Shown one piece after another: positions 12,060-47,857 of a stretch of 51,257 nt of DNA. Each line of letters starts with the position of its first letter. Positions within the stretch are counted from its first letter, which is position 1. The position numbers were made by a program, and so were the translations under genes. The notes beneath the pieces are model-generated. The model worked only from the letters and a program-made list of their open reading frames with translations. It did not search any database and had not been told where the DNA came from. This stretch comes from Armatimonadetes bacterium UBA5419 (GTDB lineage Bacteria; Armatimonadota; UBA10988). The stretch lies in NCBI GenBank assembly GCA_002409445.1, contig DHNJ01000268.1, positions 1,039-52,295 of the forward strand, in the 5' to 3' direction.

Positions 12060-12074
12060 TGTCGCCTCCCGCGG

Positions 12075-13169: not shown

Positions 13170-13209
13170 GGTTGCACTCCTTGGTTGGCCCCGGGCTCGG
13201 CGCCGGGGC

Positions 13210-15684: not shown

Positions 15685-16499
15685 TCGGCCACCACCTTTC
15701 GTAGCGCCTGGACTGTCGCCAGAAGCGCGGGCAGATCCTCGAGTCGAAGCTGGTTCGGGCCGTCGCACAACGCCTCGTTGGGACAGTCATGGACCTCGAG
15801 GAATAGGCCATCTATACCCACCGCAGCGGCCGCCCGTACCAGCGGCGGCACGAACCGCCGGTCGCCACCGCTGGCGGTGCCAGCCGCGCCGGGCAGCTGC
15901 ACGCTGTGCGTGCCGTCGAAGACGACGGGCACGCCGAAGCTGCGCATGATCACGAGGCCGCGGAAATCAACGACCAGATTGTGGTAGCCGAAGCTGCTGC
16001 CCCGCTCCATCAGCGCCACACCGGCCGCACCCGACTGCTGCACCTTGTCGATCACCGCGCGCATGTCCTCGGGCGCCGAGAACTGCGCCTTCTTGACCGT
16101 CACCGGCCGGCCAGTCTCCGCCGCGGCGACCAGCAGGTCGGTCTGCCGCGAGAGGAAGGCGGGGATCTGCAGGACGTCGACCACCTCCGCGACCGGCGCG
16201 CACTGGGCCGGCTCGTGGACGTCTGTGGTCACGGCGAGGCCTAGCTCATCGCGAACGCGCGCGAGAATGCGGAGGCCCTCGGCCTGGCCCGGCCCGCGGT
16301 ACGCGCCGAGCGAGGTCCGGTTGGCCTTGTCGAAGCTGGACTTGTAGACGAACGGTATGCCGGCATTAGCCGCGACGATCGCCAGTCGCTCGGCCATGGC
16401 CAGCGCGTGCGCCTCGCTCTCGATCACGCACGGCCCGGCCAGCAGCACCAGTTCGGGCCCGCCCAGGACTATGCCGTCGCGGATCACCATCGGCTTCAT
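15681..16499 (-). CDS. kdsA: 3-deoxy-8-phosphooctulonate (KDO-8-P) synthase
   Basis: [33 protein letters not shown]..., [42 protein letters not shown] 16499 is preceded by GAGGAG. Confidence 0.9.
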
Positions 16500-16519: not shown

Positions 16520-17038
16520 CTAGCGCAGCGCGAACGGGTCGTCGATGCGCAACGAATCGACCTTCGCGCGCTGCTCCTCGGTGAGCGCCTCCCAGACCTT
16601 GGCCCAATGCTTGCTGCGTGCCTTCATCAGCCGCTCGTTGACCGCGCGGCTAGCCTCGTCGCGGCGCTCGACCTCGGCCGGGTCGACCTGCTCGGCGTTG
16701 CCTTCCAAGTAGGCGATGAAGTCGGCGGACGCCGTCTCCATCGCGGCGCGGTCGTCCTTGGTCTCCGCCTCAAAGGCCGTCTGCGCCGCTTGCACGGTCT
16801 TGCGCTGCGCCTCGCTCAGACCGATCTTCGCCGCGCGGGCCAGCGCCCAGGCCGGCTCCGGGTTCTCGCTCAGGGCCTCCAGCGGCGCCTCGGCCAGGCC
16901 TTCGGGGACGGCTGGTGCTTGGGGCTCCGGCGCGACCGCGGCGGAACTGACCGGCGGCGGTGCGGGCGGCACGGGTTCCGGCTGCCCGCAACCGAACAAC
17001 GCCAAGCTCAGGAGCAGGCCCCACATTAGCCGTCGCAT
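16520..17038 (-). CDS. Periplasmic lipoprotein with LTXXQ motifs (Spy/CpxP-like)
   Basis: Leader [18 protein letters not shown] has a lipobox. Two LTXXQ-type motifs are present (LSEAQRK, LTEEQRA). The ATG shares one base with the MFS gene stop (TGATG at 17036-17040). Only the last 172 aa of track ORF 16520..18457 are used. Confidence 0.6.
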
Positions 17039-18423
17039 CAGGCATCCTCCACGGCACGTTCTTCCACCCGCCGCGCGGCCAGCAGCGCACCGAGCACGCC
17101 GACAAAGGCGGCGACGGCGAACGCCCAGCCGACCGCATGATACTCGTTCGCGCCCGCACCCTCGGCGGTGCTGACCACCGCGCCGGCCAGGCCAACACCT
17201 AGCACCATACCACCGTTGCGGGCCGTCGCTAACAGGGCCGAGGCGATGCCCTGGCGGTCCCGCGGCGCCGCGCCGAGCAGGGCGCTGTTGTTCGGCGAGG
17301 TGAACAGCCCCGTGCCGAGCCCCGCCAGCCCCAGACCGAAGGCCAGGTAGACCCAGGAGGTGCTCGCGCTCTGGAAGGCCAGCACCAGCAGACCGGCCGA
17401 CATGATCAGCAACCCCAGTGTGCTGGGCAACCGCGTCCCCACCCGATCCGACCAGTTGCCCGCCCACGGCGAGATCAATGCCATCATCAGCGGCTGCGCG
17501 GTAAGCAGCCGACCGGCCTCCGCCGTCGACCAACCACGCAGCGTGATCAGCGTGTGCGGCGTCAGGTAGACCACGGCGTAGATGGCGATGTAGTTGGCCA
17601 GGGCACACAGCGTCGCCGAGCTGAACTCCCACGAGTGGAACAGCCGCAGGTCCAGCATCGGCGCCGCGAGCCGCGACTCGAGGCGGTAGAAGACCACGCC
17701 CAGCGCTGCCGCCGCGCAGAGGATGCCCAGGGTCAGCGGCGAGCCCCAGCCCCAGTCCGGCCCGCGGTTCAGTGCGATCATGAAGGCGACCATGCCGGTC
17801 AGGAACAGGGCCGCGCCGAGCAGGTCGAACGGCTCCTGGAGTTCGCGGCCGGGGTCGGCGGGGATCACAGTCCAGATGATCACCAACGCCGCGGCACACA
17901 GGGGTGCATTGATCCAGAAGATCCCGTGCCAGTCCCAGGCGTCTGCCAGCCAGCCGCCCAGACTCGGCCCCAGGGTCAAGCCGAGGTAGACCATCGACGC
18001 CTGCAGGCCGAGCACGCGGCCCCGCTCGCGGGCGGGGAAGTGCTGTGTCAGCAGCGCCGGAGCGTTGGCCGAGATCATCGCTCCACCTACCGCCTGCAGG
18101 GCCCGCGCGCCGATCAGCTGGGCTAGCGACTGTGACAGCGCACAGGCCACCGACGAGAGCACAAAGACGACGAAGCCGAGCGAGAAGATTGTCCGGTGGC
18201 CGCGCGCATCGCCCAGCCGGCCGAAGCTTAATTGTAAGCCCGTCAGGCCCAGCAGATAGATGGTGATGACCCACTGCGCCTGCTCGAAATCGGCGCCGAA
18301 CTTGCCCCGGATCGTTGGCAGAATCGCGTTCACCGCGCTGGTATCGAGCGCGGTCAGGAACGAGCCGAGGCCGACCGCGGCCAAGACTGACCAACGTCCC
18401 TTGCGTCGTAAGGCTTCTGTCAT
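17038..18423 (-). CDS. MFS transporter, drug:H+ antiporter (EmrB/QacA-like) family
   Basis: 461 aa and polytopic. N-terminal MFS signature LGSFLTALDTSAVNAILPTI...GRLGDARGHR. Confidence 0.8.
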   Translation of the reverse strand: MTEALRRKGRWSVLAAVGLGSFLTALDTSAVNAILPTIRGKFGADFEQAQWVITIYLLGLTGLQLSFGRLGDARGHRTIFSLGFVVFVLSSVACALSQSLAQLIGARALQAVGGAMISANAPALLTQHFPARERGRVLGLQASMVYLGLTLGPSLGGWLADAWDWHGIFWINAPLCAAALVIIWTVIPADPGRELQEPFDLLGAALFLTGMVAFMIALNRGPDWGWGSPLTLGILCAAAALGVVFYRLESRLAAPMLDLRLFHSWEFSSATLCALANYIAIYAVVYLTPHTLITLRGWSTAEAGRLLTAQPLMMALISPWAGNWSDRVGTRLPSTLGLLIMSAGLLVLAFQSASTSWVYLAFGLGLAGLGTGLFTSPNNSALLGAAPRDRQGIASALLATARNGGMVLGVGLAGAVVSTAEGAGANEYHAVGWAFAVAAFVGVLGALLAARRVEERAVEDA

Positions 18424-18429
18424 TACAAT
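18401..18429 (+). promoter_or_regulatory. Candidate sigma70 promoter for the osmC pair (TTGCGT-N17-TACAAT)
   Basis: TTGCGT at 18401-18406 lies inside the 5' end of the divergent MFS CDS. TACAAT at 18424-18429. The osmC ATG at 18461 is preceded by GGAG..AAGGA. Confidence 0.4.
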
Positions 18430-18460
18430 GATCTCTAGATTCCTGGTAGGAGAACAAGGA

Positions 18461-20079: not shown

Positions 20080-22606
20080 ACCACAACGTACCCTGTCCCG
20101 GGTCGACCGTCACACGGAACCCGTCGGCCGTCGCGGTCAGCGGTACCTCGGCGCCCGGCACACCGTGCCCGTCCAGCGCGCGCATGCGCCAGCCATCACC
20201 CAGCGACAGGCTGAGATCCGCGGTCAGCGGCTCGATGCGCGTGGGCCCGCTGCCCCAGCGGTTGCCCACGCTGGTCGAGGTGTCGTTCCACTCCATGCCG
20301 GTATTGGCGACCGCCCCGACGACGGCCAGCAGCAGCCGCTCCGACTGGTCCAACGGCCGGCCATCGAGCGCGTTCACGGCGACCGTGGCGAAGCCGTGGA
20401 CCGACTCGCGCAGCGTCACCGCCAGCGGCCCCGCACTGAGCGTCCGCCCCTGAATCATGCCCAGCACGGCCGCGGCCTGCGGTGTGTCGATCAGCGCGTG
20501 CGCCTGCTCAGCGGGCGCGGGCTCCCAGACCAGGGCCGTCGAGGGCGCGATGTCCTGCTCGACGAGGCCCAACTCGCCGCCGTCGGTCAGTTGCACTTCC
20601 GACCGTGCGCGCAGGACGACATCGAACGGTGTCAGGCCAAGGCTGCGCCAGTGGTTGTGGACCGAGCCGCCCTCCATCGCCACGCTGCGGGGCAGCATCA
20701 GCCGCTGCACGCCGGCGGCCGCGGGCATCGACCCGCCGCGGAACAGCACGGCGGCAAACGGCGAGAGCGCGACCTTCGCCGGGTGGTTGACCATCGTGAA
20801 GTAGCCGGTGATCCGCGGATCCGGTGCGACGGTCGTATCACCGTAGTCGAACTGGTAGAGACCGTCCCAGTCCTGCAGGCCGGCGACCGCGGCGAGCAGC
20901 GGCATCATCTCCGCGCTGTAGAAGCTCGGTGCGGGGTGGTCGTACTCGGAGATGGTGTGCGGCTTGCCCGCCGCGCGGTAGCCCGACAGGTTTTGCATCG
21001 TGCCCGCAGTGGTGGAGGCGACCATCGGTGTGTTGCTGATGTACCAGTTGTTGCCGTCCCAGGCGGTGCCGGGGAAGACCGGGTGCTGCCAGTAGGCGTG
21101 CATGTCGATGAAGTCGCCGTGGTTGACCTCGCGCAGCAGCCCGTGCGTGCCGCCGTAGTCAGCCTGGCTGTCGATCACGAGCTTGCTGCCGCCCGCGATC
21201 TCCTGGACCAGCGCCGTGAGGTCGCCGACATACTTGTCCTCGACGCCGACCAGGAACTCGCGGATGTCGGCCGCCTGCACCGAAGACCAGGTGCTCAGCG
21301 GCAGCGGCAGCGGCATCTGGTCCAACTGCGCACCAGGAGGCATCAGCGGCGGCGCGCCTTCGCGCAGCGTGACCCGACGGACCTCGACCCAGCCGAGCCG
21401 GTTGCCCATGCCGAAGGTGATGCGCGTGTGGTCCGGCAGCACGTCGTCGGCGAGGAAGGTGTAGCGGTAGTCCTGCCACTCCGGCGTGAGGGTGAACGAG
21501 TGCGTGCCACCGATGTGCCGCCAGTCGTCGATGTCGCGCCGCGCGCCGGCGGTGATCGGCCGCGCCTCGTTGGCCCGTGCCTGGAACTCGACCGTGTAGA
21601 CCTGCCCCTCGGTCAGGTTGAGCCCGACCTGATGGACCTGGAAGTGCCAGCTCTCCGTGCCCAGGGCGGTCATCTCGGTGCGCAGCGCCGGCGTGCCGTC
21701 ATCCGACTCGACCACGCTGCCGGCGATCTGCGCCGGCGCCGGTGCCTCCAGGGTCCAGCGGGTCAGGCCGTCGGTGAAGTCGCCGTTGGTCAGCATCTGC
21801 GGCCCGAAGCCGGCCGGCACCGTCTGCCAAGCGTTCAGGGCGGCGGCGAGATCGCCATACTTGGCGGCGATGAACTCGCCCCACTGCTGCCGCAGCGGCG
21901 CGACAAACTCGTCGCTTAACTCCAGCCAGGCAGGGTTGGTCGCCTGGCCGGTGAGGCTGTTCTCGTTGTTCAGCTCGACGAACGAGATCGCCGGCTCGGC
22001 GGCGTAGCTGGCGCCGGTGTACGGGTTCACGTGCTCGAGGATGAGCCGTGCGTACTCGTGCTGCTGGCGGATCATCTCCGGGTGGTAGTTGTCGAGCGAC
22101 TTGCCGTAGTTGTAGGTGCGCGGCACGCCGGCCCAGTCGAACCCGGTGTACCAGCGGCTGACGTGCAGGTTCAGGTTCACGTAGATGCCGGCCTGCTTGA
22201 GGTTGTAGATGAGCCAGTCGAGGCGGTCCATCTGCTCGGCGTCGAGGGAGGTCTGCGTGTCGTCGCCCCAGAGACCGCGGGGGATGCCCGCGTTGTCCAG
22301 GTGGTGCAGGCGGACGACGTTGAAGCCAAGTTGCGCCATGCGCTGGGCGATCAGCGGCGACATTGACTTGTCGGGGAAAGCGGTGGCGAAGGTGAGGTTG
22401 GTGCCCAGCAACCGCAGCCGCTGGCCGGCCCCGTCGATGAACTGGCCGTTCTGCACCGTGACCGGGCCGCGGCTGCCGGCCGGCGCGGGGTTGAGGCCGC
22501 TGAGGTCGACGAACGTGCCGGCGGCCTTGACCGGCGGCATCGGGAAGGCCAGCGCGCCGGGCGTCGGCTCGGCGCCCACACAAAGAGCCAGCAGAAGGGT
22601 CAACAT
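20060..22606 (-). CDS. Large secreted GH5-like glycoside hydrolase with internal CBM4_9-like module and C-terminal beta-rich domains
   Basis: N-terminal TIM-barrel features LLGTNLTF, GFNVVRLHHLDN and VELNNENS (acid/base). The CBM-like segment begins LTNGDFTDGLTRWTLE. The start is ATG 22606 or GTG 22630. Confidence 0.7.
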   Translation of the reverse strand: MLTLLLALCVGAEPTPGALAFPMPPVKAAGTFVDLSGLNPAPAGSRGPVTVQNGQFIDGAGQRLRLLGTNLTFATAFPDKSMSPLIAQRMAQLGFNVVRLHHLDNAGIPRGLWGDDTQTSLDAEQMDRLDWLIYNLKQAGIYVNLNLHVSRWYTGFDWAGVPRTYNYGKSLDNYHPEMIRQQHEYARLILEHVNPYTGASYAAEPAISFVELNNENSLTGQATNPAWLELSDEFVAPLRQQWGEFIAAKYGDLAAALNAWQTVPAGFGPQMLTNGDFTDGLTRWTLEAPAPAQIAGSVVESDDGTPALRTEMTALGTESWHFQVHQVGLNLTEGQVYTVEFQARANEARPITAGARRDIDDWRHIGGTHSFTLTPEWQDYRYTFLADDVLPDHTRITFGMGNRLGWVEVRRVTLREGAPPLMPPGAQLDQMPLPLPLSTWSSVQAADIREFLVGVEDKYVGDLTALVQEIAGGSKLVIDSQADYGGTHGLLREVNHGDFIDMHAYWQHPVFPGTAWDGNNWYISNTPMVASTTAGTMQNLSGYRAAGKPHTISEYDHPAPSFYSAEMMPLLAAVAGLQDWDGLYQFDYGDTTVAPDPRITGYFTMVNHPAKVALSPFAAVLFRGGSMPAAAGVQRLMLPRSVAMEGGSVHNHWRSLGLTPFDVVLRARSEVQLTDGGELGLVEQDIAPSTALVWEPAPAEQAHALIDTPQAAAVLGMIQGRTLSAGPLAVTLRESVHGFATVAVNALDGRPLDQSERLLLAVVGAVANTGMEWNDTSTSVGNRWGSGPTRIEPLTADLSLSLGDGWRMRALDGHGVPGAEVPLTATADGFRVTVDPGQGTLWYALDKP

Positions 22607-29761: not shown

Positions 29762-30334
29762 ATGGCCAGCCTGCTCGCGGCGAACGTCGCCGCCGCCCAT
29801 GCTGCGTTGGATCTTGCGGCCGCGCTTGACGAGCCGCTCCAGACCGCGGCTGAACTCGTCGCCGAGAGCCTGCGCGCGGGCGGCAAGCTGCTCTGCTGTG
29901 GCAATGGTGGCAGCGCGGCCGAAGCCGGCCACCTTGCGACCGAGTTCGTCGTGCGCTTTCGCGACGAACGGCCGGCGCTTGCCGCGATCGACCTGACCGC
30001 GAGCGGCGCCAACCTAACCGCCGTGGGCAACGACTACCACTGGGACGAGGCGTTCAGCCGCCAGATCGAGGCGCTCGGCCGGCCCGGCGACGTGCTGGTC
30101 GTTTTCACCTCGTCCGGCGCCAGCCCGAACATCGAACGCGCCCTGCACACCGCGCGCAAGCTCGGTGTGCGGCGCTTGGCTTTTCTCGGCCGCGACGGCG
30201 GCAGCTGCCGCGACCTGTCCGATGTCGAGTTGCTCGTCCCCGCCCAGGTCACCGCGCGCATCCAGGAGGCGCACCTCCTCCTCCTGCACACGCTGTGCGA
30301 GCTGGTGGAGCAGCGGCTGGGACTGCTCGGCTAG
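29762..30334 (+). CDS. gmhA: D-sedoheptulose-7-phosphate isomerase (SIS domain)
   Basis: LLCCGNGGSAAEAGHLATEF, VLVVFTSSGASPNI and QEAHLLLLHTLCE. The ATG is 3 nt after the anti-sigma stop. Confidence 0.85.
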   Translation: MASLLAANVAAAHAALDLAAALDEPLQTAAELVAESLRAGGKLLCCGNGGSAAEAGHLATEFVVRFRDERPALAAIDLTASGANLTAVGNDYHWDEAFSRQIEALGRPGDVLVVFTSSGASPNIERALHTARKLGVRRLAFLGRDGGSCRDLSDVELLVPAQVTARIQEAHLLLLHTLCELVEQRLGLLG

Positions 30335-33300
30335 CCGGTCAGGTGCAGGCGGTCCGCGCCGTCGATCTGCTCAGCTCGACCGGTGGCCAGTAGGATCTCC
30401 ACCGCCTCGTTGAAGTACTCGCGCATCGGCGCGGAAACGCGCTGGTACCCCAGCAGCCGCGCCGTTTCGGTGACCAAGTCCTCGCGTGGCAGACCAATCT
30501 GCTGGCGCAGCACCTCGGCGGCCGCGTTGGCAACCTCTTCGGGCGCGATCTCCTCGGCCTTCCGCTTTTCTCGCTCCGCGTCGCCGTTCACCCGGAAGAC
30601 GCGGTACTGCGCCGGATCGGCGCCCGCCGGCCAGAGGAACGTCCGCTCGCCGCGCCGGTGCACGTCGACGGCCGCGGCGGGCAGCGCGTTGTCGACGGCC
30701 ACGCGGACGGGCTTGGTCAAGCTCTTGATGTCCCAGAACTGGATGACCCGGCGCGAGGCGGCCTCGAGGCTGAGCGGCCCCTCGCGCTGCACCACGGCCG
30801 ACAGCACCGTGGCGATCTTCGCTCGTGCTGACGGGCCGAAGAAGTCCTCGCGCGTGCCCAGCGGCGCACGCGGCCTACTCTCGCGGTAGACGGGCCATTC
30901 GGTCTGCGTGTGTGCGGGTGCTGCCTCGTCGGCGGCGAGGACGTCATTGTCGTCCGCCGGTGGCGTCTCGTTCGCTACGGGCTCCGGAGCTTTCTCCGGT
31001 TCGGCCGGCTGCGCATCCGACGGCGCGGCGAGCGCCGCGGAGATCGCCTTCTCCAGCCGCGCGAGCACTCGCTTGGGCTCTTGCCACCATTCCAGCGAGT
31101 AGACCCGCTCCAATCTCCAGCCCAGGCCGGCGAGCACGTCACGGCGCAGCAAGTCGCGGTCACGGACCGAGCTGGCCTGACGGTAGCTAGCACCGTCGCA
31201 AGCGATGCCCAGGATGTGGCGGGTCGGGTCACGTGGGTCGCGCACGGCCAGGTCCAGGCGGTAATCGGACGAGCCGACCGCCAGGTCCACCTCGTGGCCG
31301 CGCGCGCGGAGTGCCTCGGCCAGAGCCTGCTCGATGCTTTGCTCGCTCGCCGCCGTACCGTCGCTCGTGGTGCCGCCGGTCAGCGCGCCGAGACCGCGCT
31401 CAGCGAAGTCGAGATAGGCCTTCAGGTCGCCCACCCCGCCCTCCTTCGAGACGCGGCCAAGGTCGATGTCCTCGGCCCGTAAACTGGCAAAGATCATCGT
31501 CTCGCGCCGCGATCGGGTCACCGCCACATTCAGCCGCCGCGCCCCGCCCGCCTTGTTTAGCGGGCCGAAGTTCATCGCGACCCGGCCTTCGCTATCTGGC
31601 CCGAAGCAGATGGAGAAGAGAATCACGTCGCGTTCGTCGCCCTGGACGTTTTCGAGGTTCTTGACGAACAGTGGCTCCTCGCGCTCCGGGTCCAGCGCGG
31701 CGTCCAGCACCGAATTGCTGCCGCTGCGCATCTCGAGCAGATCCTCGATGAGTCGCTGCTGGGCCATGTTGAAGGTCACCACGCCGAGTGACTGGTGTTG
31801 GCGCAGCGGGTCGGCGAGGCGCTCCTCAATCTCCGTGACGATGGCCTCGGCTTCGGCCTGGTTGGTGCGCTCGCCGCCGCGGTCGTAGGTGCCACCGACG
31901 AAGCGGAAGCTGACCGCCGAGTCGCGGTCGGGCGAGGGGAACGTGACCAGCCGTCGGTCGTAGTAGCGGTGGTTGCTGAACGTGATCAGGCTCTCGTGCC
32001 GGCTGCGATAGTGCCAATTCAGATGATGCTGACCGATCTGCGCAGCCTGGCAGTCGTCCAAGATGCTTTCGAGGTCGCGCACCTCCTCGTCGTCGGCCGG
32101 TTCGTCGTCGGCCTCGGCGCGCTCGAAGAAGCTGGTCGGTGGCAGCTGCCGTGGGTCACCGACGATGACGACGCTGCTGCCGCGTGCCATCGCCCCGATA
32201 GCATCCCAGACCGGGATCTGCGAGGCCTCGTCGAAGACCACGAGGTCGAACGGCGGGTGCTTCGGATCGAGGTACTGCGCAACCGACAGGGGGCTCATCA
32301 GCAACACCGGCTTGAGCTTGCCTAGCAGACGCGGGATCTGCGCGAACAGCGAGCGCAACGGCAGGTGGCCCCGCTGGCGTTGTGTCTGGCGCAAGAGAAT
32401 GCCCACTTCCGAGTTGTCGTTCACGTAGGTGCCGACCTGTGGAACCTCCTTGGCGAGCTTGGCGATCAGATGTGCCTGGGCCGCGTCCATGACTTGCTTG
32501 TCGGCCTTGGCGAACTCGGCGAGGGTGTGCTCGAAGGTGGCCCGTCGGAACCGAAGCAGGGCCGGTTCGGCATCGACGACGAACTGCGTGAACCAGCGCG
32601 CGTACGAGTGCTCGAAACTGTCGGCAACCTCATCCGCTGGTAGTTCGCCCTGTTCGATTGGTGCCAGCAGGGCGCTCAGGCCACCCTGCGCCGCGGCACC
32701 GCGCGCCTGCCGCCAGTCGAGCCAACCTTGGACGTCGCCCAAACTGTCCGTGAGCGCCGCGCTGCGTGCGGCCAGCCGATCGAGGTAGGCGTCGTCGTCA
32801 CTCGGCTCCGCCAGCCAGGACGCCTCAGTGCCGAGTTCTGCCGCGAGAGCGGTGACCGCGTCGTCCAGCGCCACGGCGCCTTGGAGCAGCGCCTGCACGC
32901 GTGGCGCCGCGCCGGCGGCTTGTGCAGTCTCGAGAAATGGGGCCACCGCCTCGGCTGCGCCCTCGCCCAGCAGCGTGTGGGCGGTCTTGCGCAGGCTGGC
33001 CAGCGCGTCCAGCGCCGTCTGCAGGGCGGACCACTCGGTCGCGGCGCCCTGCCACAAGGCGCCAAGCCACGGTTCGGCCGCCGTCGACGCCACCGCCCGT
33101 AGATGCGCGCCGGCGTCCAGCGCGGCCGGTAGGTCGGTCGACAGTGTCGCGGCGGACTCGGGTCCGCCGCCGGCGGCGCACAATACGGCCGCAGCTTCGA
33201 CGGCCTGGCGGGCGTCTGCCACGAGCGTCAGCGCGGTAGTGTGGTCGTCCGGTAGGCTCGTAGGCCAGACGCGGGCGAGGTCTGCTCGCGCCGTCTCCGC

Positions 33301-36300
33301 CTGCTGTGCGGCGGCGTGCAGGTCAGCACGCCGGGCGGCCTCGGCTGGGTCGTGTTGAACAGCGAGTGCGTTGGTCACGACAATGGCGAGGTTGCTGGTG
33401 GCGGACGCGACCAGTTGGTCATGGAAGTCGTCGGCCCAGGCCAGCGTACTCTCTGCGGCGCCTAGGTCTGTCGCCGCACCGGCCCACCGGTCACCCAGGA
33501 GGCGCGTGCCGTCGTTGCTCAGCCGGTCGATCTCGTGCCGCCGGCGCTGCAAGCCGGCGAGCGCCGACAGATGATCGGCGCGCTCGTCGGTGGCTGGCGC
33601 CTGCGTCAATGTGTCGAGAGCAACCAGCGGCGCGAGCACCTGGGCCACCTTGCGGCCTCGCACCAGGAAGAACGCGGCCTGGGCCTGTACCAGCTCGGCG
33701 TGCAGCGCGACCGCGTCCAAGTCGAGCACGGCCGTGCCGTACCGCGCCGTAAGTTCGTCAGTATGTGTGGTGAGGTCGCGCACGGCGTCGACCGCCTCGC
33801 GCGCCGCGGCTAGTGGCGCGTCCGGCGCAACCAGTATCGCGGCGCCCGCCGGCGCGCGCGAGACGAGGTCGGCCAGGGCGCCCAGAGCTGAGGAGGCGGC
33901 CCAACCTGTCGGCACTGCGGCGCCACGGGCCGTGGCCCAGCTGGCCGCGTGAGTGGCGAGCGCTTCCGTTGCCTGTGCGGTGCGGTCCAACACGTCGCGG
34001 ATCGTCTCTGGCGACGTCCAGGCTGCTTCCACCAGGTGCGCCAGTTGCGGGATGGCTTGGCACTCCGCCCCAGTAATGTCCGGCAACTCGGCCAGAGCCG
34101 CAGCACCGTACGTGTCCTGCAGGCGCCCCTGTTCGTCTGCGCTGCGCCGGCCCGACTCGACGAGTGCAGCGAGGTGTGGCTGGGCCGTCGGCCAGTCGTC
34201 GCTCAGGCCGAAACGGGCAAGTGTCCTGTCGATCTGCAGCAGGCTAACGAGCACGTCCGCGACGGTGCGCGATCGGCGGGGGCCCTGGAGGTCGAGTACG
34301 GGCGCCAGCGAGCGCACTGCTTCACGCGCTTGCTGGAACGTATCGAGCGCCGCGCGGAGGTCGCCTAGCCGCTGGCGGACCGCTTCGCGCCAGGCCAACG
34401 AGTAGCTACGCTCGGGTAGCCCGGCCCAGGGACCACCGTCGAGGTGCTCTACGCCTTGCGCCGCCGTGCGCAGGTCGGCCGCCAGCCGCCGGCAGCGGGC
34501 CAGCGTCTCGGGCGGGGGCAGCGTGGTCGGCGGCCATCCGAGATCGTAGGCGGGCATCTCGCGTAGTTGGGCGATCGTGCTGAGTGCGTCGTGCATCGAG
34601 TGCCCGGGTGCCTGTCGCCGGTGCAGCGCGTCGTGATAGCCCTCGAGCTGCGCGCGCAGCTCCTTGTAGTGGTTCGCACACTCCTTCCAGTCGGTGCCGG
34701 CGCGGGAGCGCTGGAGATTCAAGGTGGCGGCCAGATCCGCGAGGACGCTGGCCTTCTGTGCCTTGTTCGAGTGCAGCGCGAGCGTGAAGGGCCCGAGGCC
34801 GAGGCGCTCCAGGCGGGAATGAACGACGTTCAGTGCCGCCGCCTTCTCGGCCACAAACAACACCGTCTTGCCGGCGTACAGCGCGTTAGCGATGAGGCTG
34901 GTGATGGTCTGGGACTTGCCTGTCCCCGGTGGTCCGTGCAGGACGTAGCTGTGCCCGCGCACCGCCGCCTCGACGGCCTTCAGCTGCGACGAGTCCACAC
35001 TGACCACCGGCAGATAGGCCGGGCCATTCCCGCTGGGCTCCGCTGTCAGCACCGCTGGGTCTCGGAAGGCCGCGGTCGGCGTGTCGATCAGGTGCTGCAC
35101 CACCGCATTGCGGCGCAGGTCGTCCGCGCGTACATCGAGATCGCGCCACATCAGGAACTTGGTGAACGAGAAGAGCCCGAGGCAGGCCGCCTGGATGACT
35201 TCCCAGTGGGGCACACCGCTCACCGCGTGCGTGACGATGTTCATCACCTCGTGGATGTCGACGCCATTCTCGTCCGTCGGCAGCGGATCCAGGCCTTCAA
35301 GGGTGAGCTTGTGCTCCTTGGTCAGGAACTCCAGCAGCGTGGAGTTGAAGACGGTCTCGTCATTGCCCGCGCGCAGCTCGAACCGCTCGTGGCGCGAGCG
35401 GCGTTGTATCGTGACTGGCATGAGTAGAAGCGGTGCCACGCAGGCCCGGTTCTGCATTGGAACGAGCCAGACGAGGAAGCCTAGCGCGAGGAATAGCGTG
35501 TTGGCACCGTTCTCGTCGAGTGATAGGCGAGCATCACGGCTGATGCCCACGAGATTGCGCTGTAGCGTCGCCTCGTCGAGCAGCACCCGCAGGCGGCCGG
35601 CCTGGAGCTCCGACTTAAGCAGTTCGTCGGCCAGGTCGTTACCGGTGCGCAGCGCCCGGTCCCGAGCGGCGGCCAGGCGGGATCGCGAGAACTCCTGCGG
35701 TGGACCATGGACCTGCAGCTTCCGGCCGCTGGCCAGCGCGTCTTCAAGGGCGGCGAGGTCTGGCGCTTCCAAGCGTATGGACTTGGCGGTCAGCCGGAAG
35801 TTCAGCAGCCGATTGTTCAGCGAGAAGTCGAGCAACCGCTGCTTCCAGCGGTCCGGCCGCGCGCCCCCGGTGACTTTCTCTGCCGGCGTCTGCGCCGTTG
35901 GGGTCCAAGGCTTGATGAGCTCGTGCGGCATGGCAGCAGCGTGAGCGTCGACGGGAGCGTCCGCAATGACCTCGCCCGTTCCGCCACTCGGCAGGGGGCG
36001 CAGGCCGCTCAGGCGTGTACGGTGGACATCCACCGCCAAGATAAAGTCGCGTCGATCATCGAGCTGGCGCTGGGCAATGCGGGATGCCGCCGCGAACGAG
36101 ATGTTGCGATCGGTGAGCGCCGTGGCCTCAAAGAAGACGACTTGACCCAGGCTGGCGCGCTTACGCAGCTGACTAGCCTCCCAGACGACGGCCTCGGGAA
36201 AGGTGGTGTCCAAGAGCCAGCAGCCAACGAAGGCGTGGGTCCGGGTGATGTACAGAATGGGGTTCAGCGCGGCTTGCTCGAGCACCGCGGCGGCCAAGAC

Positions 36301-36945
36301 CGCCAGATCCAGGCAGTTACCGAGGCCCTGCTCGAGAACATCTTGGGGGAGGCGGATCTTCTGGCCGACGTCCTCGTAACTCGCAGCGATCGTCGAGTAA
36401 GTGATGCCGCGCGCCTGCAGCGCGCCGTAGATCGCCGCGACCGTCGCGCTGACCCGGTCGGAGTCCTCGCCTTGGTAGCTAATCAGCGCCGAAACACCGG
36501 TATGCGTCTCGAGGATCTGCCCCGCCTCGCGCAGGACGGCGTCGATGCGGGGGGCGTTGGGGGTGACGAAGGCAGCTAGCGACTCGGGCACGGTGAACAC
36601 ACCCGTCCACTGGTCGCCTGGCAGCAGCGCAATCTCGCGCACTTGGCTGCCGACGACCTCGTCGCCAACCCGTGCCTCGACGATCAGTTCGCCGCGCATG
36701 CGTTCATTCAGATCACGGAGGAACGAGTGGTTGAGGCGCAAGGCCGGCGGGGGCAGTTCGCGCGGGATATCCGCGAACAGCTGGTCCACACCCACCGTCC
36801 ACGGTTCGCAGAACTCCGGCTCCGAGCGGATACTGACCTGCACTTCCGGCAGGTCTGGCCCGCTCGTTAACTCGACGCGCAAGCCCCAGAGCAGCCGGAT
36901 GTCGTTGTGCCATAGGGCGTACGAAACTGCCGGCTGATCGGCCAT
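30331..36945 (-). CDS. Giant (~2,204 aa) multidomain protein: N-terminal transglutaminase/papain-like module, DUF4011, Upf1-like SF1 helicase (AAA_11/AAA_12) with ~800-aa helical insert, REase (MTES/DUF559-like) domain, DUF3320
   Basis: Positions use ORF-track numbering. GLGNCLDLAV (C267), THAFVGCW (H293), VFFEAT. DUF4011-like RLLDFSLNNRLLNFR. Walker A LHGPPGTGKSQT (727-734), Walker B VVFDEASQ (1628-1631), VGDPRQLPP, NWHYRSRHESL, VQGDERDV, LNVAVTRSR. DYRLDLAV...GIACDGASYRQ...RDRDLLRRDVLAGLGWRLERVYSLEWW. C-terminal DUF3320-like tail. ATG 36945 is chosen; a GTG/TTG slightly upstream is possible. Confidence 0.85.
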   Translation of the reverse strand: MADQPAVSYALWHNDIRLLWGLRVELTSGPDLPEVQVSIRSEPEFCEPWTVGVDQLFADIPRELPPPALRLNHSFLRDLNERMRGELIVEARVGDEVVGSQVREIALLPGDQWTGVFTVPESLAAFVTPNAPRIDAVLREAGQILETHTGVSALISYQGEDSDRVSATVAAIYGALQARGITYSTIAASYEDVGQKIRLPQDVLEQGLGNCLDLAVLAAAVLEQAALNPILYITRTHAFVGCWLLDTTFPEAVVWEASQLRKRASLGQVVFFEATALTDRNISFAAASRIAQRQLDDRRDFILAVDVHRTRLSGLRPLPSGGTGEVIADAPVDAHAAAMPHELIKPWTPTAQTPAEKVTGGARPDRWKQRLLDFSLNNRLLNFRLTAKSIRLEAPDLAALEDALASGRKLQVHGPPQEFSRSRLAAARDRALRTGNDLADELLKSELQAGRLRVLLDEATLQRNLVGISRDARLSLDENGANTLFLALGFLVWLVPMQNRACVAPLLLMPVTIQRRSRHERFELRAGNDETVFNSTLLEFLTKEHKLTLEGLDPLPTDENGVDIHEVMNIVTHAVSGVPHWEVIQAACLGLFSFTKFLMWRDLDVRADDLRRNAVVQHLIDTPTAAFRDPAVLTAEPSGNGPAYLPVVSVDSSQLKAVEAAVRGHSYVLHGPPGTGKSQTITSLIANALYAGKTVLFVAEKAAALNVVHSRLERLGLGPFTLALHSNKAQKASVLADLAATLNLQRSRAGTDWKECANHYKELRAQLEGYHDALHRRQAPGHSMHDALSTIAQLREMPAYDLGWPPTTLPPPETLARCRRLAADLRTAAQGVEHLDGGPWAGLPERSYSLAWREAVRQRLGDLRAALDTFQQAREAVRSLAPVLDLQGPRRSRTVADVLVSLLQIDRTLARFGLSDDWPTAQPHLAALVESGRRSADEQGRLQDTYGAAALAELPDITGAECQAIPQLAHLVEAAWTSPETIRDVLDRTAQATEALATHAASWATARGAAVPTGWAASSALGALADLVSRAPAGAAILVAPDAPLAAAREAVDAVRDLTTHTDELTARYGTAVLDLDAVALHAELVQAQAAFFLVRGRKVAQVLAPLVALDTLTQAPATDERADHLSALAGLQRRRHEIDRLSNDGTRLLGDRWAGAATDLGAAESTLAWADDFHDQLVASATSNLAIVVTNALAVQHDPAEAARRADLHAAAQQAETARADLARVWPTSLPDDHTTALTLVADARQAVEAAAVLCAAGGGPESAATLSTDLPAALDAGAHLRAVASTAAEPWLGALWQGAATEWSALQTALDALASLRKTAHTLLGEGAAEAVAPFLETAQAAGAAPRVQALLQGAVALDDAVTALAAELGTEASWLAEPSDDDAYLDRLAARSAALTDSLGDVQGWLDWRQARGAAAQGGLSALLAPIEQGELPADEVADSFEHSYARWFTQFVVDAEPALLRFRRATFEHTLAEFAKADKQVMDAAQAHLIAKLAKEVPQVGTYVNDNSEVGILLRQTQRQRGHLPLRSLFAQIPRLLGKLKPVLLMSPLSVAQYLDPKHPPFDLVVFDEASQIPVWDAIGAMARGSSVVIVGDPRQLPPTSFFERAEADDEPADDEEVRDLESILDDCQAAQIGQHHLNWHYRSRHESLITFSNHRYYDRRLVTFPSPDRDSAVSFRFVGGTYDRGGERTNQAEAEAIVTEIEERLADPLRQHQSLGVVTFNMAQQRLIEDLLEMRSGSNSVLDAALDPEREEPLFVKNLENVQGDERDVILFSICFGPDSEGRVAMNFGPLNKAGGARRLNVAVTRSRRETMIFASLRAEDIDLGRVSKEGGVGDLKAYLDFAERGLGALTGGTTSDGTAASEQSIEQALAEALRARGHEVDLAVGSSDYRLDLAVRDPRDPTRHILGIACDGASYRQASSVRDRDLLRRDVLAGLGWRLERVYSLEWWQEPKRVLARLEKAISAALAAPSDAQPAEPEKAPEPVANETPPADDNDVLAADEAAPAHTQTEWPVYRESRPRAPLGTREDFFGPSARAKIATVLSAVVQREGPLSLEAASRRVIQFWDIKSLTKPVRVAVDNALPAAAVDVHRRGERTFLWPAGADPAQYRVFRVNGDAEREKRKAEEIAPEEVANAAAEVLRQQIGLPREDLVTETARLLGYQRVSAPMREYFNEAVEILLATGRAEQIDGADRLHLTG

Positions 36946-37040
36946 CTGCAGATCAAGGGCCACCGTCGTGGTCGTGCCTAGTTCACTCGTACCCTCAGCC
37001 AAGCCCCACACTCCCCCGCATCGATAGCGGTCCGTCTCGC

Positions 37041-37070
37041 ATCTTAGCCGCGACCGCGGTCGAGGGGCAA
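37041..37070 (-). promoter_or_regulatory. Candidate promoter for the giant helicase gene (TTGCCC-N18-TAAGAT on minus strand)
   Basis: The reverse complement of 37041-37070 reads TTGCCC ctcgaccgcggtcgcggc TAAGAT, about 95 nt upstream of ATG 36945. Confidence 0.3.
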
Positions 37071-37097
37071 GTCGGTGGGCTCGAGCCCTCGAACCCC

Positions 37098-37126
37098 TTG
37101 TCGGCAGGCGCACCTTCGGGTAGACT
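37098..37126 (+). promoter_or_regulatory. Candidate sigma70 promoter for the tRNA/SRP RNA array (TTGTCG-N17-TAGACT)
   Basis: TTGTCG at 37098-37103 and TAGACT at 37121-37126. The first tRNA begins 13 nt downstream. Confidence 0.45.
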
Positions 37127-37138
37127 AATTGGCTAGCG

Positions 37139-37226
37139 GGAGAGGTGGCCGAGCGGCTGAAGGCGTCCGCCTGCTAAGCGGGAGCACCCTAGACCGGTGC
37201 CGCGGGTTCGAATCCCGCCCTCTCCG
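37139..37226 (+). tRNA. tRNA-Ser (anticodon GCU), class II with long variable arm
   Basis: Hand-folded. Acceptor GGAGAGG/CCTCTCC, anticodon stem TCCGC/GCGGG with loop CTGCTAA, variable stem GCACC/GGTGC, T arm GCGGG-TTCGAAT-CCCGC. No encoded CCA. Confidence 0.85.
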
Positions 37227-37234
37227 TAGTCTGT

Positions 37235-37306
37235 GCCCCTGTAGCTCAATGGATAGAGCGGCCGCCTCCTAAGCGGTAGATCTGGGTTCGATTCCCGGTA
37301 GGGGCA
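37235..37306 (+). tRNA. tRNA-Arg (anticodon CCU)
   Basis: Acceptor GCCCCTG/TAGGGGC, D arm GCTC-AATGGATA-GAGC, anticodon loop CTCCTAA, T loop TTCGATT. Ends are good to about 1-2 nt. Confidence 0.8.
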
Positions 37307-37333
37307 GGCACGGGCGAGGTCCCGTAACCCTGT

Positions 37334-37421
37334 GGAGGGGTGTCCGAGTGGTTGATGGTGCCGCTCTCGAAAAGCGGTGTGCGGTGTCCCCGCACCGTGG
37401 GTTCGAATCCCACCTCCTCCG
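37334..37421 (+). tRNA. tRNA-Ser (anticodon CGA), class II
   Basis: Acceptor GGAGGGG/CTCCTCC (one G-U pair), anticodon stem CCGCT/AGCGG with loop CTCGAAA, variable stem GTGCGG/CCGCAC, T arm GTGGG-TTCGAAT-CCCAC. Confidence 0.85.
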
Positions 37422-37467
37422 TGTCCGCAGTATCCTTGGTGCGTGCGGCGGACGTTAGAAGAGATGA

Positions 37468-37539
37468 GCCCCCGTAGCTCAGTGGATAGAGCGCAGGTCT
37501 CCGGAACCTGAGGCGCTAGTTCAATTCTAGCCGGGGGTA
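37468..37539 (+). tRNA. tRNA-Arg (anticodon CCG)
   Basis: Acceptor GCCCCCG/CGGGGGT, D arm GCTC-AGTGGATA-GAGC, anticodon stem CAGGT/ACCTG with loop CTCCGGA, T arm GCTAG-TTCAATT-CTAGC. Confidence 0.8.
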
Positions 37540-37572
37540 TTGACGAGTTGGCGAGGTGCGCTCGTCGTAGCT

Positions 37573-37660
37573 GGAGGAGTGACCGAGCTGGTTTAAGGAG
37601 CGCGATTGGAAATCGCGTGTGGGCGAAAGTCCACCGGGGGTTCGAATCCCCCCTCCTCCG
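37573..37660 (+). tRNA. tRNA-Ser (anticodon GGA), class II
   Basis: Acceptor GGAGGAG/CTCCTCC, anticodon stem CGCGA/TCGCG with loop TTGGAAA, long variable arm, T arm GGGGG-TTCGAAT-CCCCC. Confidence 0.85.
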
Positions 37661-37675
37661 CTGAGATCGTGCTAG

Positions 37676-37941
<266 letters not shown>

Positions 37942-39642: not shown

Positions 39643-40020
39643 ATGTCTCATTTCACTCGCATCCGAACCAAGCTGCGCAACCTTGTCCTCCTGGAGCGTG
39701 CCCTGCGCGACCTCGGCTACGTGCCGAGTGTCGGCAACGTGCGTGTCCGCGGTTGGCACGGTGAGTCGCGGCGCGCCGACCTGGTCGTCCAGCAGCCCAA
39801 CGGCTACGACTTTGGCTTCCGCCTCGTCGATGGCGAGCTGGTCATGCTCGCCGACGTCTACGGCTTCCGTGGCAACCCCGCCGATCTGCTCGGCACGATC
39901 AGTCAGCGCTACGCCTACCACGTCTGCCGCGAGCAGGCCGAGGCGCAGGGCTTCCAGGTCACCGGCGAAACAGTCGACGAAGACGGCACGATCCGCCTCG
40001 TCGTCGAACGCTACAGCTGA
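39643..40020 (+). CDS. DUF1257 (Ycf35-like) domain protein
   Basis: MSHFTRIRTKLRNLVLLERALRDLGY... matches the remembered DUF1257 N-terminal pattern. 125 aa. Confidence 0.65.
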   Translation: MSHFTRIRTKLRNLVLLERALRDLGYVPSVGNVRVRGWHGESRRADLVVQQPNGYDFGFRLVDGELVMLADVYGFRGNPADLLGTISQRYAYHVCREQAEAQGFQVTGETVDEDGTIRLVVERYS

Positions 40021-40032
40021 GCGGAGGTCCCC

Positions 40033-40242
40033 ATGGCACGCGAACGTATCGAATTCACCATTCGGCCCGACGGCACCGTCGAGGAGCGCACGATCGGTAT
40101 CCCCGGTGAAGCGTGCGAGGAGGCGACCGCCGGCGCCGAGGCGGCACTGGGCGAAATCGTCCACCGCGAAGCCACCGCCGAGCGTTACGAGGCGCCGGTC
40201 GACGAAGCGCCGCCGGTCTACTCCCGGCGGGACGACGACTGA
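40033..40242 (+). CDS. DUF2997-like small protein
   Basis: IEFTIRPDGTVEERTIGIPGEACEEATAGAEAALGEIVHREATAEY-like pattern. 69 aa, lying 12 nt after the DUF1257 gene. Confidence 0.55.
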   Translation: MARERIEFTIRPDGTVEERTIGIPGEACEEATAGAEAALGEIVHREATAERYEAPVDEAPPVYSRRDDD

Positions 40243-46418: not shown

Positions 46419-46590
46419 TGAGTAGCGCTCTCGGAAGTCGGTGAGAAGCCGACGCAGCCCCTGCTACGGTAACCGGAGACGAACGCCGCAGGCCCTCGGT
46501 GAGGGCAGCCATTGACCAACCTGGGTGATCAGACCGGTCGAGAAGGCGCGGCGGGAGGACGACCTGGAAGCCCGGAGACCTCGCTACCCA
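46419..46590 (+). promoter_or_regulatory. Cobalamin (B12) riboswitch
   Basis: CGGAAGTCGGTGAGAAGCCGACGCAGCCCCTGCTACGGTAACC parallels E. coli btuB GGGAAUCCAGUGCGAAUCUGGAGCUGACGCGCAGCGGUAAGG. GCCATTGACC...GAGAAGGCG is also present. B12 box GGAAGCCCGGAGACCTCGC at 46566-46584. The closing P1 stem pairs GTAGCG 46422-46427 with CGCTAC 46582-46587. Confidence 0.85.
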
Positions 46591-46621: not shown

Positions 46622-47857
46622 ATGGCGACCAGCGAGTTTGTGCATCAACGGCGCTACCCCGTCGCGCCACGCCCCTACCCGCTGCTCTGGTCGCTCGCGG
46701 TCGCCGCACCGCTCGTCCTGCTCGCCCTTGCGCTCGTGCGCCCGCCGGCGACCGAAACCGCCCCGCCGCAGACACTCCGCCGGCTGCGCCCGGTACGCGT
46801 GAGCCACGCAGCACTGCGCTCGGCGGCGCCAGCAACCACTGTGCAGCCAGGCCGCGCCACGCAGGCCGCCACAACGCCCGCGGCGGCACGCCCAGCATCG
46901 CGAACAGCCCATGTGCCCGCGCACGCCCCGGCGCTGCGCCGCAGCCCGGCGACGGCGCCTGCAAGCTCGCCGCGGGTCACCGCATCCACCCCCGTTGCCA
47001 CGGTGGCGGACAGCACACCTACACCGGCGGCCAGCCCGGGCTCGGCCTCACGCCGCAGCCCCGCCACCGAACGACCTGCCATGCCCGTGGCCACCTTCCA
47101 AGGCGGCGGTACCGGCGGCAGCGCGCGGCCGCAAGCCCCTGGGCGCCTCGCCACCAGCGCCGCCCTGCCCAACGCTGCAACTCCCGGCCCCGGCGGCGCG
47201 CGAATCGGTGTGACTGGCCCCGGTGAGATCATGGTTCGTCCGGGCACCGCGGCGCCCGTCGGCGGTGGCCTGCGCATCGCCGCCAGTAGCTCCGCCGGCG
47301 TGGCTGCCGGCCTCGCTGGGGCTGGCCGCGGCGCTGACGGCACCTCCGCCGGCAGCAGTCAGCCGACACCGCGAAGCGGCGTTAGTGCGCCTCGCCCCGG
47401 CGCGGCTGTCGACGTGGCCACGCCGCCCTCTCGCCCTGCCCTCCCTGCAACCCCGGCACCTACCCCACCGCCTCCGGCCACTCCCGTGCCGGCTCCAACG
47501 CCCGCCGCCGCGCCGCCCAAGGTGGTCGCGCCGGCCGTCCCCGCTCCTCGGCCCACGCCTCCTCCCCCGCCGGCCGCGAAACCTGAGCCCAAGCCCGAAC
47601 CGAAGTCGGACCTACCCGCCGAGCCGCGCCTGGTCTCGCGAGCCACACCGAGCTTCCCGCCCGCCGACGCCGCCGGCTCCGTGACCATCGCCATCGCCGT
47701 CAATGCCGGTGGCACCGTGACCTCGGTGGATGTGACCAACTCGTCGGGTTCCTCGGCCATCGACTCGGCCGCCCGCGCGGCTGGGCGCCGGTTCCGCTTC
47801 TCGCCGGCGCAGCAGGGCAAGACCTTCTACCAGACCTTCCGCTACAGCCCGCAGTGA
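46622..47857 (+). CDS. tonB: TonB-family energy transducer with an exceptionally long Ala/Pro/Thr/Ser-rich linker
   Basis: N-terminal TM helix YPLLWSLAVAAPLVLLALALV, about 300 aa of low-complexity linker with a Pro-rich tract (PPPPAAKPEPKPEPK), and a TonB_C-like end GSVTIAIAVNAGGTVTSVDVTNSSGSSAIDSAARAAGRRFRFSPA. Confidence 0.7.
   Translation: MATSEFVHQRRYPVAPRPYPLLWSLAVAAPLVLLALALVRPPATETAPPQTLRRLRPVRVSHAALRSAAPATTVQPGRATQAATTPAAARPASRTAHVPAHAPALRRSPATAPASSPRVTASTPVATVADSTPTPAASPGSASRRSPATERPAMPVATFQGGGTGGSARPQAPGRLATSAALPNAATPGPGGARIGVTGPGEIMVRPGTAAPVGGGLRIAASSSAGVAAGLAGAGRGADGTSAGSSQPTPRSGVSAPRPGAAVDVATPPSRPALPATPAPTPPPPATPVPAPTPAAAPPKVVAPAVPAPRPTPPPPPAAKPEPKPEPKSDLPAEPRLVSRATPSFPPADAAGSVTIAIAVNAGGTVTSVDVTNSSGSSAIDSAARAAGRRFRFSPAQQGKTFYQTFRYSPQ

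Follow-up and report, generated by a model that had tools for sequence, protein, structure and literature searches.

A divergent giant protein of the ProA family, with a degenerate nuclease site and a probable role in defence, from an Armatimonadetes genome

The genome of Armatimonadetes bacterium UBA5419 carries, between ordinary housekeeping genes, one very large gene in which protease-like, helicase and nuclease-like modules are fused, and this raises the question whether such a gene protects the cell against invading nucleic acid or serves another purpose. We analyzed it in a stretch of 51,257 nucleotides (positions 1,039 to 52,295 of contig DHNJ01000268.1, assembly GCA_002409445.1), hereafter called the window, where it lies on the minus strand at 30331..37002. 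An earlier note on this DNA had read the gene as a candidate one-gene surveillance or defence system. The reading that we favour, with moderate confidence, is that the product is a divergent and probably functional defence protein of the ProA type, in which the restriction endonuclease (REase) domain would no longer be catalytic.

The relationship of the protein to known defence proteins was readily identified with curated profiles. It scored 1999.7 bits against the equivalog model NF058533.1 of NCBIfam, 'anti-phage protein ProA', which has a cut-off of 1500 bits. In PADLOC, which displays no curated cut-off, the best match was PDC-S37 (profile PDLC05009; 1281.6 bits, E 0, covering most of the profile), followed by Hhe with 546 bits; the Hhe equivalog NF042953.1 gave 781.3 bits and thereby stays below its cut-off of 2000 bits. 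PADLOC and Pfam runs had been suggested in the earlier note, and the latter recovered DUF4011, AAA_11/AAA_12, REase_MTES_1575 and DUF3320. Four homologs from different phyla reached 2301-2416 bits on the ProA model and covered the whole profile from their N-termini, so that the model must include the transglutaminase-like module with which these proteins begin. When the protein was searched segment by segment with BLAST, the best 120 of 1221 homologs were all collinear with the query across seven segments, from the N-terminal module to the tail. The N-terminal module alone retrieved 774 representatives at E<=1e-30 and 2099 at 1e-10 among 1.84 billion, and it occurs almost only at the N-terminus of proteins of ~1930-2300 aa. 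By its sequence, the giant protein belongs, as a divergent member, to the ProA / PDC-S37 family and is a relative of Hhe. ProA shares its domain order, from the beta-sandwich and transglutaminase-like module to the DUF3320 tail, and PDC-S37 is a single-gene candidate for phage defence, not a validated system, in PADLOC-DB v2 (2023).

The order of modules given in the earlier note (transglutaminase-like, DUF4011, Upf1-like superfamily 1 (SF1) helicase, REase, DUF3320) was borne out by Pfam, by structural modeling with a fold search and by the segment BLAST, whereas its view of the architecture as functionally uncharacterised needs correction, as this is a named anti-phage family in NCBIfam and the fusion was described in 2013 (PMC3710099). 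There (Anantharaman et al. 2013, PMC3710099), MTES_1575 of Microbacterium testaceum (~2,160 aa) was assigned a transglutaminase and an SF1 helicase, together with a Vsr-type REase of a novel kind and two winged helix-turn-helix domains overlapping DUF3320; the window protein has this fusion and falls in that size class. The study also assigned an active HEPN domain to MTES_1575 (PMC3710099), and none was detected in the window protein.

Among the relatives, Hhe is reported to defend against the phages lambda, T3, T7 and PhiV-1 (10.1101/2022.06.16.496414), and its activation has been suggested to occur via the consequences of phage DNA-metabolism genes and not by direct recognition of one protein (10.1101/2024.10.10.617714). 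Hhe (PADLOC PDLC02194) shares with the window protein DUF4011, a split Upf1-like SF1 helicase, the MTES_1575/Vsr-like REase and the single-gene make-up, with 38% identity over ~570 aa. The Hhe protein of Klebsiella and E. coli (1911 aa) starts with DUF4011 (residues 30-308) and lacks both the transglutaminase-like module and DUF3320, which are present in the window protein. On the Klebsiella plasmid pKP6701, two DUF262 genes and insertion sequence elements surround hhe, and 302 of the 5426 complete E. coli genomes carry the gene. The likeness to Mokosh is confined to the helicase (MkoA 83 bits and MkoC 71 bits in PADLOC) and the accessory domains differ; in Mokosh and other Upf1-like defence helicases the helicase is coupled to an effector, as it is in the window protein. 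Hachiman (HamAB) and Gabija are alike in outline, in that a helicase surveys nucleic acid and is joined by a nuclease-fold effector. They are two-protein complexes and have no sequence relationship to the window protein, whose nuclease site is degenerate.

The gene is a single, intact frame. Its longest form in the list of open reading frames (ORFs) and their translations extends from GTG 37113 to 30331 on the minus strand (2260 codons), and the 6,672-nt (6.67-kb) frame is found, nearly identical and free of stops or frameshifts, in 5 independent assemblies from different samples, which supports the single gene of ~2,200 aa in the earlier note as real. The start used there, ATG 36945 (2,204 aa), is probably 57 nt too far downstream. 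In public annotation the identical protein (P0001; P numbers denote individual family members) begins at TTG 37002 and is 2,223 aa long. This TTG is likely the true start, because GGGGAG is located ~9 nt upstream and because the residues ahead of the ATG (...TVALDLQ-MADQP-AVSY...) match the beta-strand that precedes the conserved VNYAMQQND motif in homologs. Residue numbers below nevertheless count from ATG 36945; the earlier numbering is offset by 56, so that its C267 and K733 are C211 and K677 here. A 110-aa 'fragment' of the protein in the metagenome-assembled genome (MAG) GCA_002407825.1 was considered as a pseudogene and rejected as an annotation artefact of a gap in the scaffold: a run of N at 10917-11077 of contig DHOZ01000083.1 splits the gene and leaves a public call of its 110-aa C-terminal part. 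The same contig also ends within the tRNA array that adjoins the gene.

The feature that sets this copy apart is the REase domain (residues 1870-1970; 31036..31338, minus strand), which is of the Vsr/DUF559-like MTES_1575 type (Pfam PF18741, E 1e-25 on residues 1872-1968). The score of 89.7 bits, against a cut-off of 38.2, speaks for membership of the fold only, and catalytic competence is doubtful. An alignment of the 120 homologs gives the family consensus ...YRID...LGIECDGAxYH...RDRD...GW...HR. The window protein keeps the two aspartates (D1898, D1917) and the RDRD and GLGW motifs, and carries A1915 at the position of the Glu (present in 108 of the 120 homologs), R1922 at that of the paired His (110 of 120) and E1946 at that of a further His (105 of 120); where Hhe has IECDG..YH (IECDGAAYH), it reads IACDG..YR. 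All three replacements are identical in the 5 assemblies. With 10 of 41 highly conserved positions altered (76% match), this is the poorest domain of the protein; the helicase matches at 93% and the tail at 100%.

The importance of the Glu comes from Hhe, where E1731A in the Vsr domain is reported in a preprint to abolish defence against T7 (10.1101/2022.06.16.496414). The RefSeq Hhe of 1911 aa has only one Glu near position 1731, E1727, which lies in IECDG. As the RefSeq start of hhe is preceded, at a distance of exactly four codons, by an in-frame ATG (2966-2980 of the hhe locus from Klebsiella pKP6701; 1915-aa reading) that shifts the numbering accordingly, we take E1731 of the literature to be E1727 of RefSeq. 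In BLASTP this Glu aligns ungapped with A1915, and the window protein therefore carries the Hhe-inactivating change as its wild type. Cleavage of DNA by the domain is thus unlikely, judged from the replacement of Glu by Ala and of its paired His by Arg, and for a presumably inactive site the loss of the His is the stronger argument of the two. The nuclease-like module of the earlier note consequently holds as a fold, while the Glu and His kept by ~90% of the family are gone, and the logic of helicase plus nuclease inferred from it probably does not apply to this protein.

Loss of the pair is not confined to the window copy. About 10 other members lack the Glu/His pair while the rest of their proteins is conserved: it has been lost jointly in two clades (P0119/P0104/P0113/P0118 and P0102/P0110/P0106) and in P0120. 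Since the nearest relatives of the query retain the pair, at least three to four independent losses are indicated. One of the proteins lacking the pair, P0102 of Paenibacillus elgii, is encoded in a clear defence island, between a type I restriction-modification (R-M) system and a NERD-UvrD gene.

The helicase, by comparison, is well preserved, keeping 130 of 140 family-conserved positions. It is split into an N-terminal part of domain 1A with the Walker A motif (residues 646-760; 34666..35010, minus strand; Pfam AAA_11, AAA_30 and AAA_19, PDB match IGHMBP2/SMUBP-2) and the rest of 1A with 2A (residues 1541-1830; 31456..32325, minus strand; the second stretch of AAA_11, and AAA_12). The AAA_11 and AAA_12 scores (65.4 and 55.3 bits) exceed their cut-offs and place it among the Upf1-like SF1 helicases. 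All motifs quoted in the earlier note are present: GPPGTGKS at 671-678 (with K677), DEAS at 1572-1575, VGDPRQLPP at 1595-1603, NWHYRSRHESL at 1643-1653, VQGDERDV at 1767-1774 and LNVAVTRSR at 1805-1813, as well as RLLDFSLNNRLLNFR at 370-384 in DUF4011.

Between Walker A and the DEAS motif II lies an Ala/Leu-rich helical insert of ~780 aa (residues 761-1540; 32326..34665, minus strand), on which no Pfam profile scored at E<=10 or better. The length-variable region of the family, mapped by BLAST, lies in the middle of the insert (~880-1260) and consists, in homologs, of tandem repeats of a helical unit of ~95-110 aa, with one copy in the forms of ~1975 aa, two in P0016/P0025/P0058 (2230-2300 aa) and three in P0032/P0041/P0049/P0053 (2284-2297 aa). 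The window protein falls in the long class, and searches with the unit found its own repeats too diverged to score. A HEPN domain as assigned to MTES_1575 was sought in the insert and rejected: Pfam gave no HEPN match, no Rx4-6H motif is conserved, and the only Rx4-6H strings fall in unconserved columns specific to the query.

For the N-terminal third, residues 1-640 were modelled with AlphaFold2 from an input of 19 diverse homologs, which gave a mean predicted local distance difference test (pLDDT) of 80. The model comprises a beta-sandwich (residues 1-107; 36625..36945, minus strand; pLDDT 72-92), preceded by a strand encoded at 36946-37002, an alpha/beta core (residues 110-320; 35986..36618, minus strand), a disordered linker (residues 321-361; 35863..35985, minus strand; pLDDT <50 for 322-360, in variable or gapped columns) and DUF4011 (residues 362-632; 35050..35862, minus strand; Pfam PF13195, E 5e-40). 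Best PDB matches of the model in Foldseek were 3kd4 (a putative protease), several entries of transglutaminase 2 (TG2), 3isr (a putative cysteine protease) and PNGase, with modest values (E 1e-3 to 1e-1, prob 0.6-1.0). The beta-sandwich matches include the N-terminal domain of TG2, which is likewise ordered as a beta-sandwich followed by the catalytic core. A transglutaminase has been named in this architecture before (PMC3710099).

In the family alignment C211, D213 and H237 are invariant, and position 273 is Glu here and Asp in some homologs. In the model C211 opens a helix (211-224), H237 opens a strand (238-243) and E273 follows a strand (269-272), which is the arrangement of transglutaminase-like and papain-like folds, with the Cys at a helix start and the His and acid on later strands. 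Pfam matches of this core stay below the gathering cut-offs (DUF553, E 0.0027, 17.6 bits against 20.5; Transglut_core, E 0.014, 16.1 against 23). The Cys-His-acid module claimed in the earlier note is thus supported by the predicted fold and active site, while its sequence scores fall short of the curated thresholds. The model of DUF4011 by itself was confident (pLDDT 84, predicted template modelling score 0.77). A profile search of PDB sequences with this domain gave nothing meaningful, and one marginal match in BFVD was to a phage 'AAA domain protein'. The only solved structures of relatives that were found are the IGHMBP2 helicase core and, for the REase domain, RAP-domain proteins.

Beyond the REase domain, an acidic Pro/Ala-rich linker (residues 1971-2019; 30889..31035, minus strand), seen in the translation as unconserved or gapped columns, leads to the tail with DUF3320 (residues 2020-2204; 30334..30888, minus strand; Pfam PF11784, E 1e-6 on the tail alone). 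The DUF3320 region has been described as two winged helix-turn-helix domains (PMC3710099), and all 13 family-conserved positions of the tail are kept.

Elsewhere, members of the family keep the company of defence genes. Inspection of homolog contexts, which the earlier note had suggested, showed defence or mobility genes adjoining 6 of 7 sampled loci. Their neighbours include a 1670-aa STAND NTPase, a resolvase and DUF6538 in Geomonas; GmrSD (P0058); type I R-M, a transposase and NERD-UvrD in Paenibacillus elgii; type I R-M and TrwB/DUF87 genes in a Phycisphaerae MAG; PD-(D/E)xK, ResIII, HD and transposase genes (P0108); and PLD-SNF2, a type ISP-like methylase and SLFN/AlbA_2 (P0006). Plasmid records with a homolog numbered 458, including 207 of conjugative plasmids, and one conjugative plasmid of P. 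aeruginosa with a homolog also carries integrative and conjugative element (ICE) genes, ParDE and an integrase. A search of the 2.9 million viral contigs in IMG/VR gave just 9 related loci, so that carriage by phages is not typical of the family. The homolog loci share no evident partner gene, consistent with a single-gene system and with the single-gene logic put forward earlier. The profile matches, the activity of Hhe against phage and these islands and plasmids together uphold the defence reading of the architecture. On record NZ_OY725931.1 of Bacteroides finegoldii, a ProA-type homolog is convergent with a 'reverse transcriptase family protein' (14843-15973), next to rpsA; the two could form a two-gene defence islet among genes that are otherwise housekeeping, and the record, though labelled 'plasmid', appears to come from a chromosome.

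The setting of the window copy is of another kind. The gene order is cellulase, ABC transporter, AsnB, S10 peptidase, extracytoplasmic-function sigma factor, a 237-aa protein, a SIS/gmhA gene and the giant gene, followed beyond it by tRNAs, signal recognition particle (SRP) RNA, a beta-lactamase-fold protein, MntP, DUF1257, DUF2997 and MnmA, and the neighbourhood of the giant gene is identical in at least 5 assemblies from different samples. The gmhA-like SIS_2 gene (29762-30334), annotated as phosphoheptose isomerase in the source records, is convergent with the giant gene, and their stops overlap in the sequence CTAG (30331..30334), as the earlier note had described. On the other side, a 136-bp intergenic region (37003..37138), presumed to hold the promoter, separates the giant gene from a tRNA-Ser that starts at 37139. 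The candidate promoter mentioned earlier was not recovered, as a sigma-70 consensus scan of 36800-37300 returned no site, which is a weak negative given that the promoter type of the host is not established. Five tRNA genes (37139-37661), divergent from the giant gene, alternate as Ser-GCT, Arg-CCT, Ser-CGA, Arg-CCG and Ser-GGA, and a large-type bacterial SRP RNA (37667-37930) starts ~6 nt past them in one tight cluster of noncoding RNAs, in line with the divergent array reported before.

The host has no close sequenced relative in the collections searched: the best non-self match of the gmhA-like protein was 66% identical among 5.8 billion proteins, and the best in GTDB species genomes, from Phycisphaeraceae, other Planctomycetota and Verrucomicrobiota, were 53-58% identical. 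Of 80 gmhA loci of other genomes, none held a homolog of the giant gene, and their gmhA proteins, at most 53-58% identical, are too distant to judge synteny; the tRNA neighbourhoods were not conserved in the genomes compared. Farther out in the window, the DUF1257 and DUF2997 genes form a pair (39643-40242) between MntP and MnmA, and a cobalamin riboswitch (46433-46579, 69.7 bits) lies just upstream of an ORF (46622-47857) with an unusually high second-position GC of 0.74. Two ORFs (12030-13223 and 16520-18457) have a higher GC content at the first than at the third codon position (0.93/0.64 and 0.82/0.63), compared to third-position values (GC3) of 0.8-0.9 in their neighbours, and are probably shadow frames.

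Several observations weigh against a role in defence or against a non-catalytic REase domain. Housekeeping genes flank the giant gene on both sides, as the earlier note had stated, and the locus shows no island or mobile-element context: PADLOC gave 0 matches on 10 neighbours, no attachment site-like (att-like) direct repeats flank the gene, no integrase is present, and GC and GC3 of the gene are host-like (GC3 0.83 versus 0.79-0.93). The protein has the lowest ProA score among the members tested and is 36-45% identical to any other family member. The anti-phage label of ProA itself derives from NCBIfam curation and from the relative Hhe; in the literature searched we found no mention of PDC-S37 and no publication behind the name ProA. 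'Prometheus' is a DefenseFinder system named in three recent Pseudomonas/Pectobacterium papers, and its equation with ProA is an unverified guess from the name only. For the DUF4011 model the PDB holds no structural relative (best E 0.058, prob 0.11), and no substrate or activity is known for this domain or for the transglutaminase-like module. In Vsr, the backbone of a Thr occupies the position equivalent to the Glu, so that catalysis may survive the loss of this residue alone.

A recent insertion at the tRNA array was considered and rejected, given the lack of direct repeats and integrase and the host-like composition. A 74-nt 'tRNA-Ser(GCT)' called by ARAGORN at 21003-21076, considered as the remnant of an att site, was likewise discarded as false, being absent from the Rfam matches and unalignable with the tRNA-Ser at 37139. 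This false call falls inside the coding region of the cellulase and its carbohydrate-binding module. The giant gene looks like a long-standing resident of the genome and not a recent acquisition.

Alternatively, a former defence gene may have been taken over for maintenance of host DNA or RNA, acting for example on R-loops, protein-nucleic-acid blocks or in repair through its helicase and DNA-binding domains, with a dispensable nuclease site. The purely housekeeping neighbourhood, the convergent stop overlap with gmhA, the host-like composition and the constant position of the gene in all assemblies of the species that cover the locus fit this explanation, as does the loss of nuclease residues next to intact helicase motifs. 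It has a precedent in a DUF4011 gene that is core in all P. aeruginosa isolates and flanks the defence hotspot cDHS1 (PMC10250203); the position of that gene at a hotspot equally shows that core status, or a fixed chromosomal position, does not exclude a link to defence. Against domestication, the N-terminal catalytic triad is kept, for which a pure maintenance helicase has no obvious need, the family is patchy, plasmid-borne and associated with islands, and no homolog accompanies the gmhA loci of other genomes. We consider this explanation improbable, though the strongest of the competing ones.

A fully active helicase-nuclease of the canonical kind, in which the REase domain cuts via D1898, D1917 and other residues and restricts DNA as proposed for Hhe, is less probable still and in our view distinctly unlikely. 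The fold is recognised with confidence, both aspartates and the RDRD and GLGW motifs are in place, and a non-acidic residue in place of the Glu is tolerated by enzymes of the Vsr type. These points are outweighed by the Ala at the position whose Ala mutant deprives Hhe of defence, by the Arg and Glu at the two His positions and by the lowest conservation of any domain, and the joint loss of Glu and His in other lineages is what is expected of a functional pair. A decaying relic that has no current function, suggested by the degenerate nuclease site, the lowest family score and the lack of a partner or island context, is highly improbable in view of the uninterrupted 6,672-nt frame in 5 assemblies, the conservation of helicase and tail and the retained catalytic Cys and His.

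For the reading that we favour, a defence protein of the ProA type whose REase domain is not catalytic, the following mode of action may be envisaged. The two C-terminal winged-helix domains and the REase fold would hold DNA, and the Upf1-like SF1 motor would translocate with ATP on invader nucleic acid or on intermediates of replication or recombination and act as the sensor. In canonical members the Vsr-like nuclease would then cut; defence by Hhe requires the Glu of IECDG. In the window copy, where Ala and Arg replace the Glu and its paired His and the domain is unlikely to cut DNA, the output would have to come from remodelling by the helicase, from the C211/H237/E273 module acting on protein by proteolysis, deamidation or cross-linking, or from both. 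A more far-reaching proposal is that ProA-type proteins in general possess a second, nuclease-independent effector arm, in which the transglutaminase-like module, driven by the helicase, acts on a protein target and provides immunity or another function where Glu and His have been lost; we put this forward tentatively, as possible yet doubtful.

The architecture is already catalogued: the family is named, is modelled in two defence databases and has been described since 2013, it opens no new category, and the Prokaryotic Genome Annotation Pipeline would annotate the window protein as ProA. Particular to this copy, compared to a typical ProA, are its identity of at most 45% to other members, its housekeeping neighbourhood free of island or mobile-element marks, the replaced REase Glu and His and its place among the long-insert variants. 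Points of interest for the family are the natural and recurrent loss of the nuclease site, DUF4011 as a domain lacking a structural match, and the variation in repeat number in the helicase insert (~residues 900-1200 of homologs), which might set reach or partner binding. Giants of the Hhe/ProA type are widespread, with hundreds to thousands of clusters at 50% identity and hundreds of plasmids, and a published mechanism for them was not found in the literature searched. With its motor and Cys-His site kept, the window copy is a ready-made test of whether proteins of this type need to cut DNA. If the nuclease-independent arm exists, it would be a natural separation-of-function allele for dissecting that arm.

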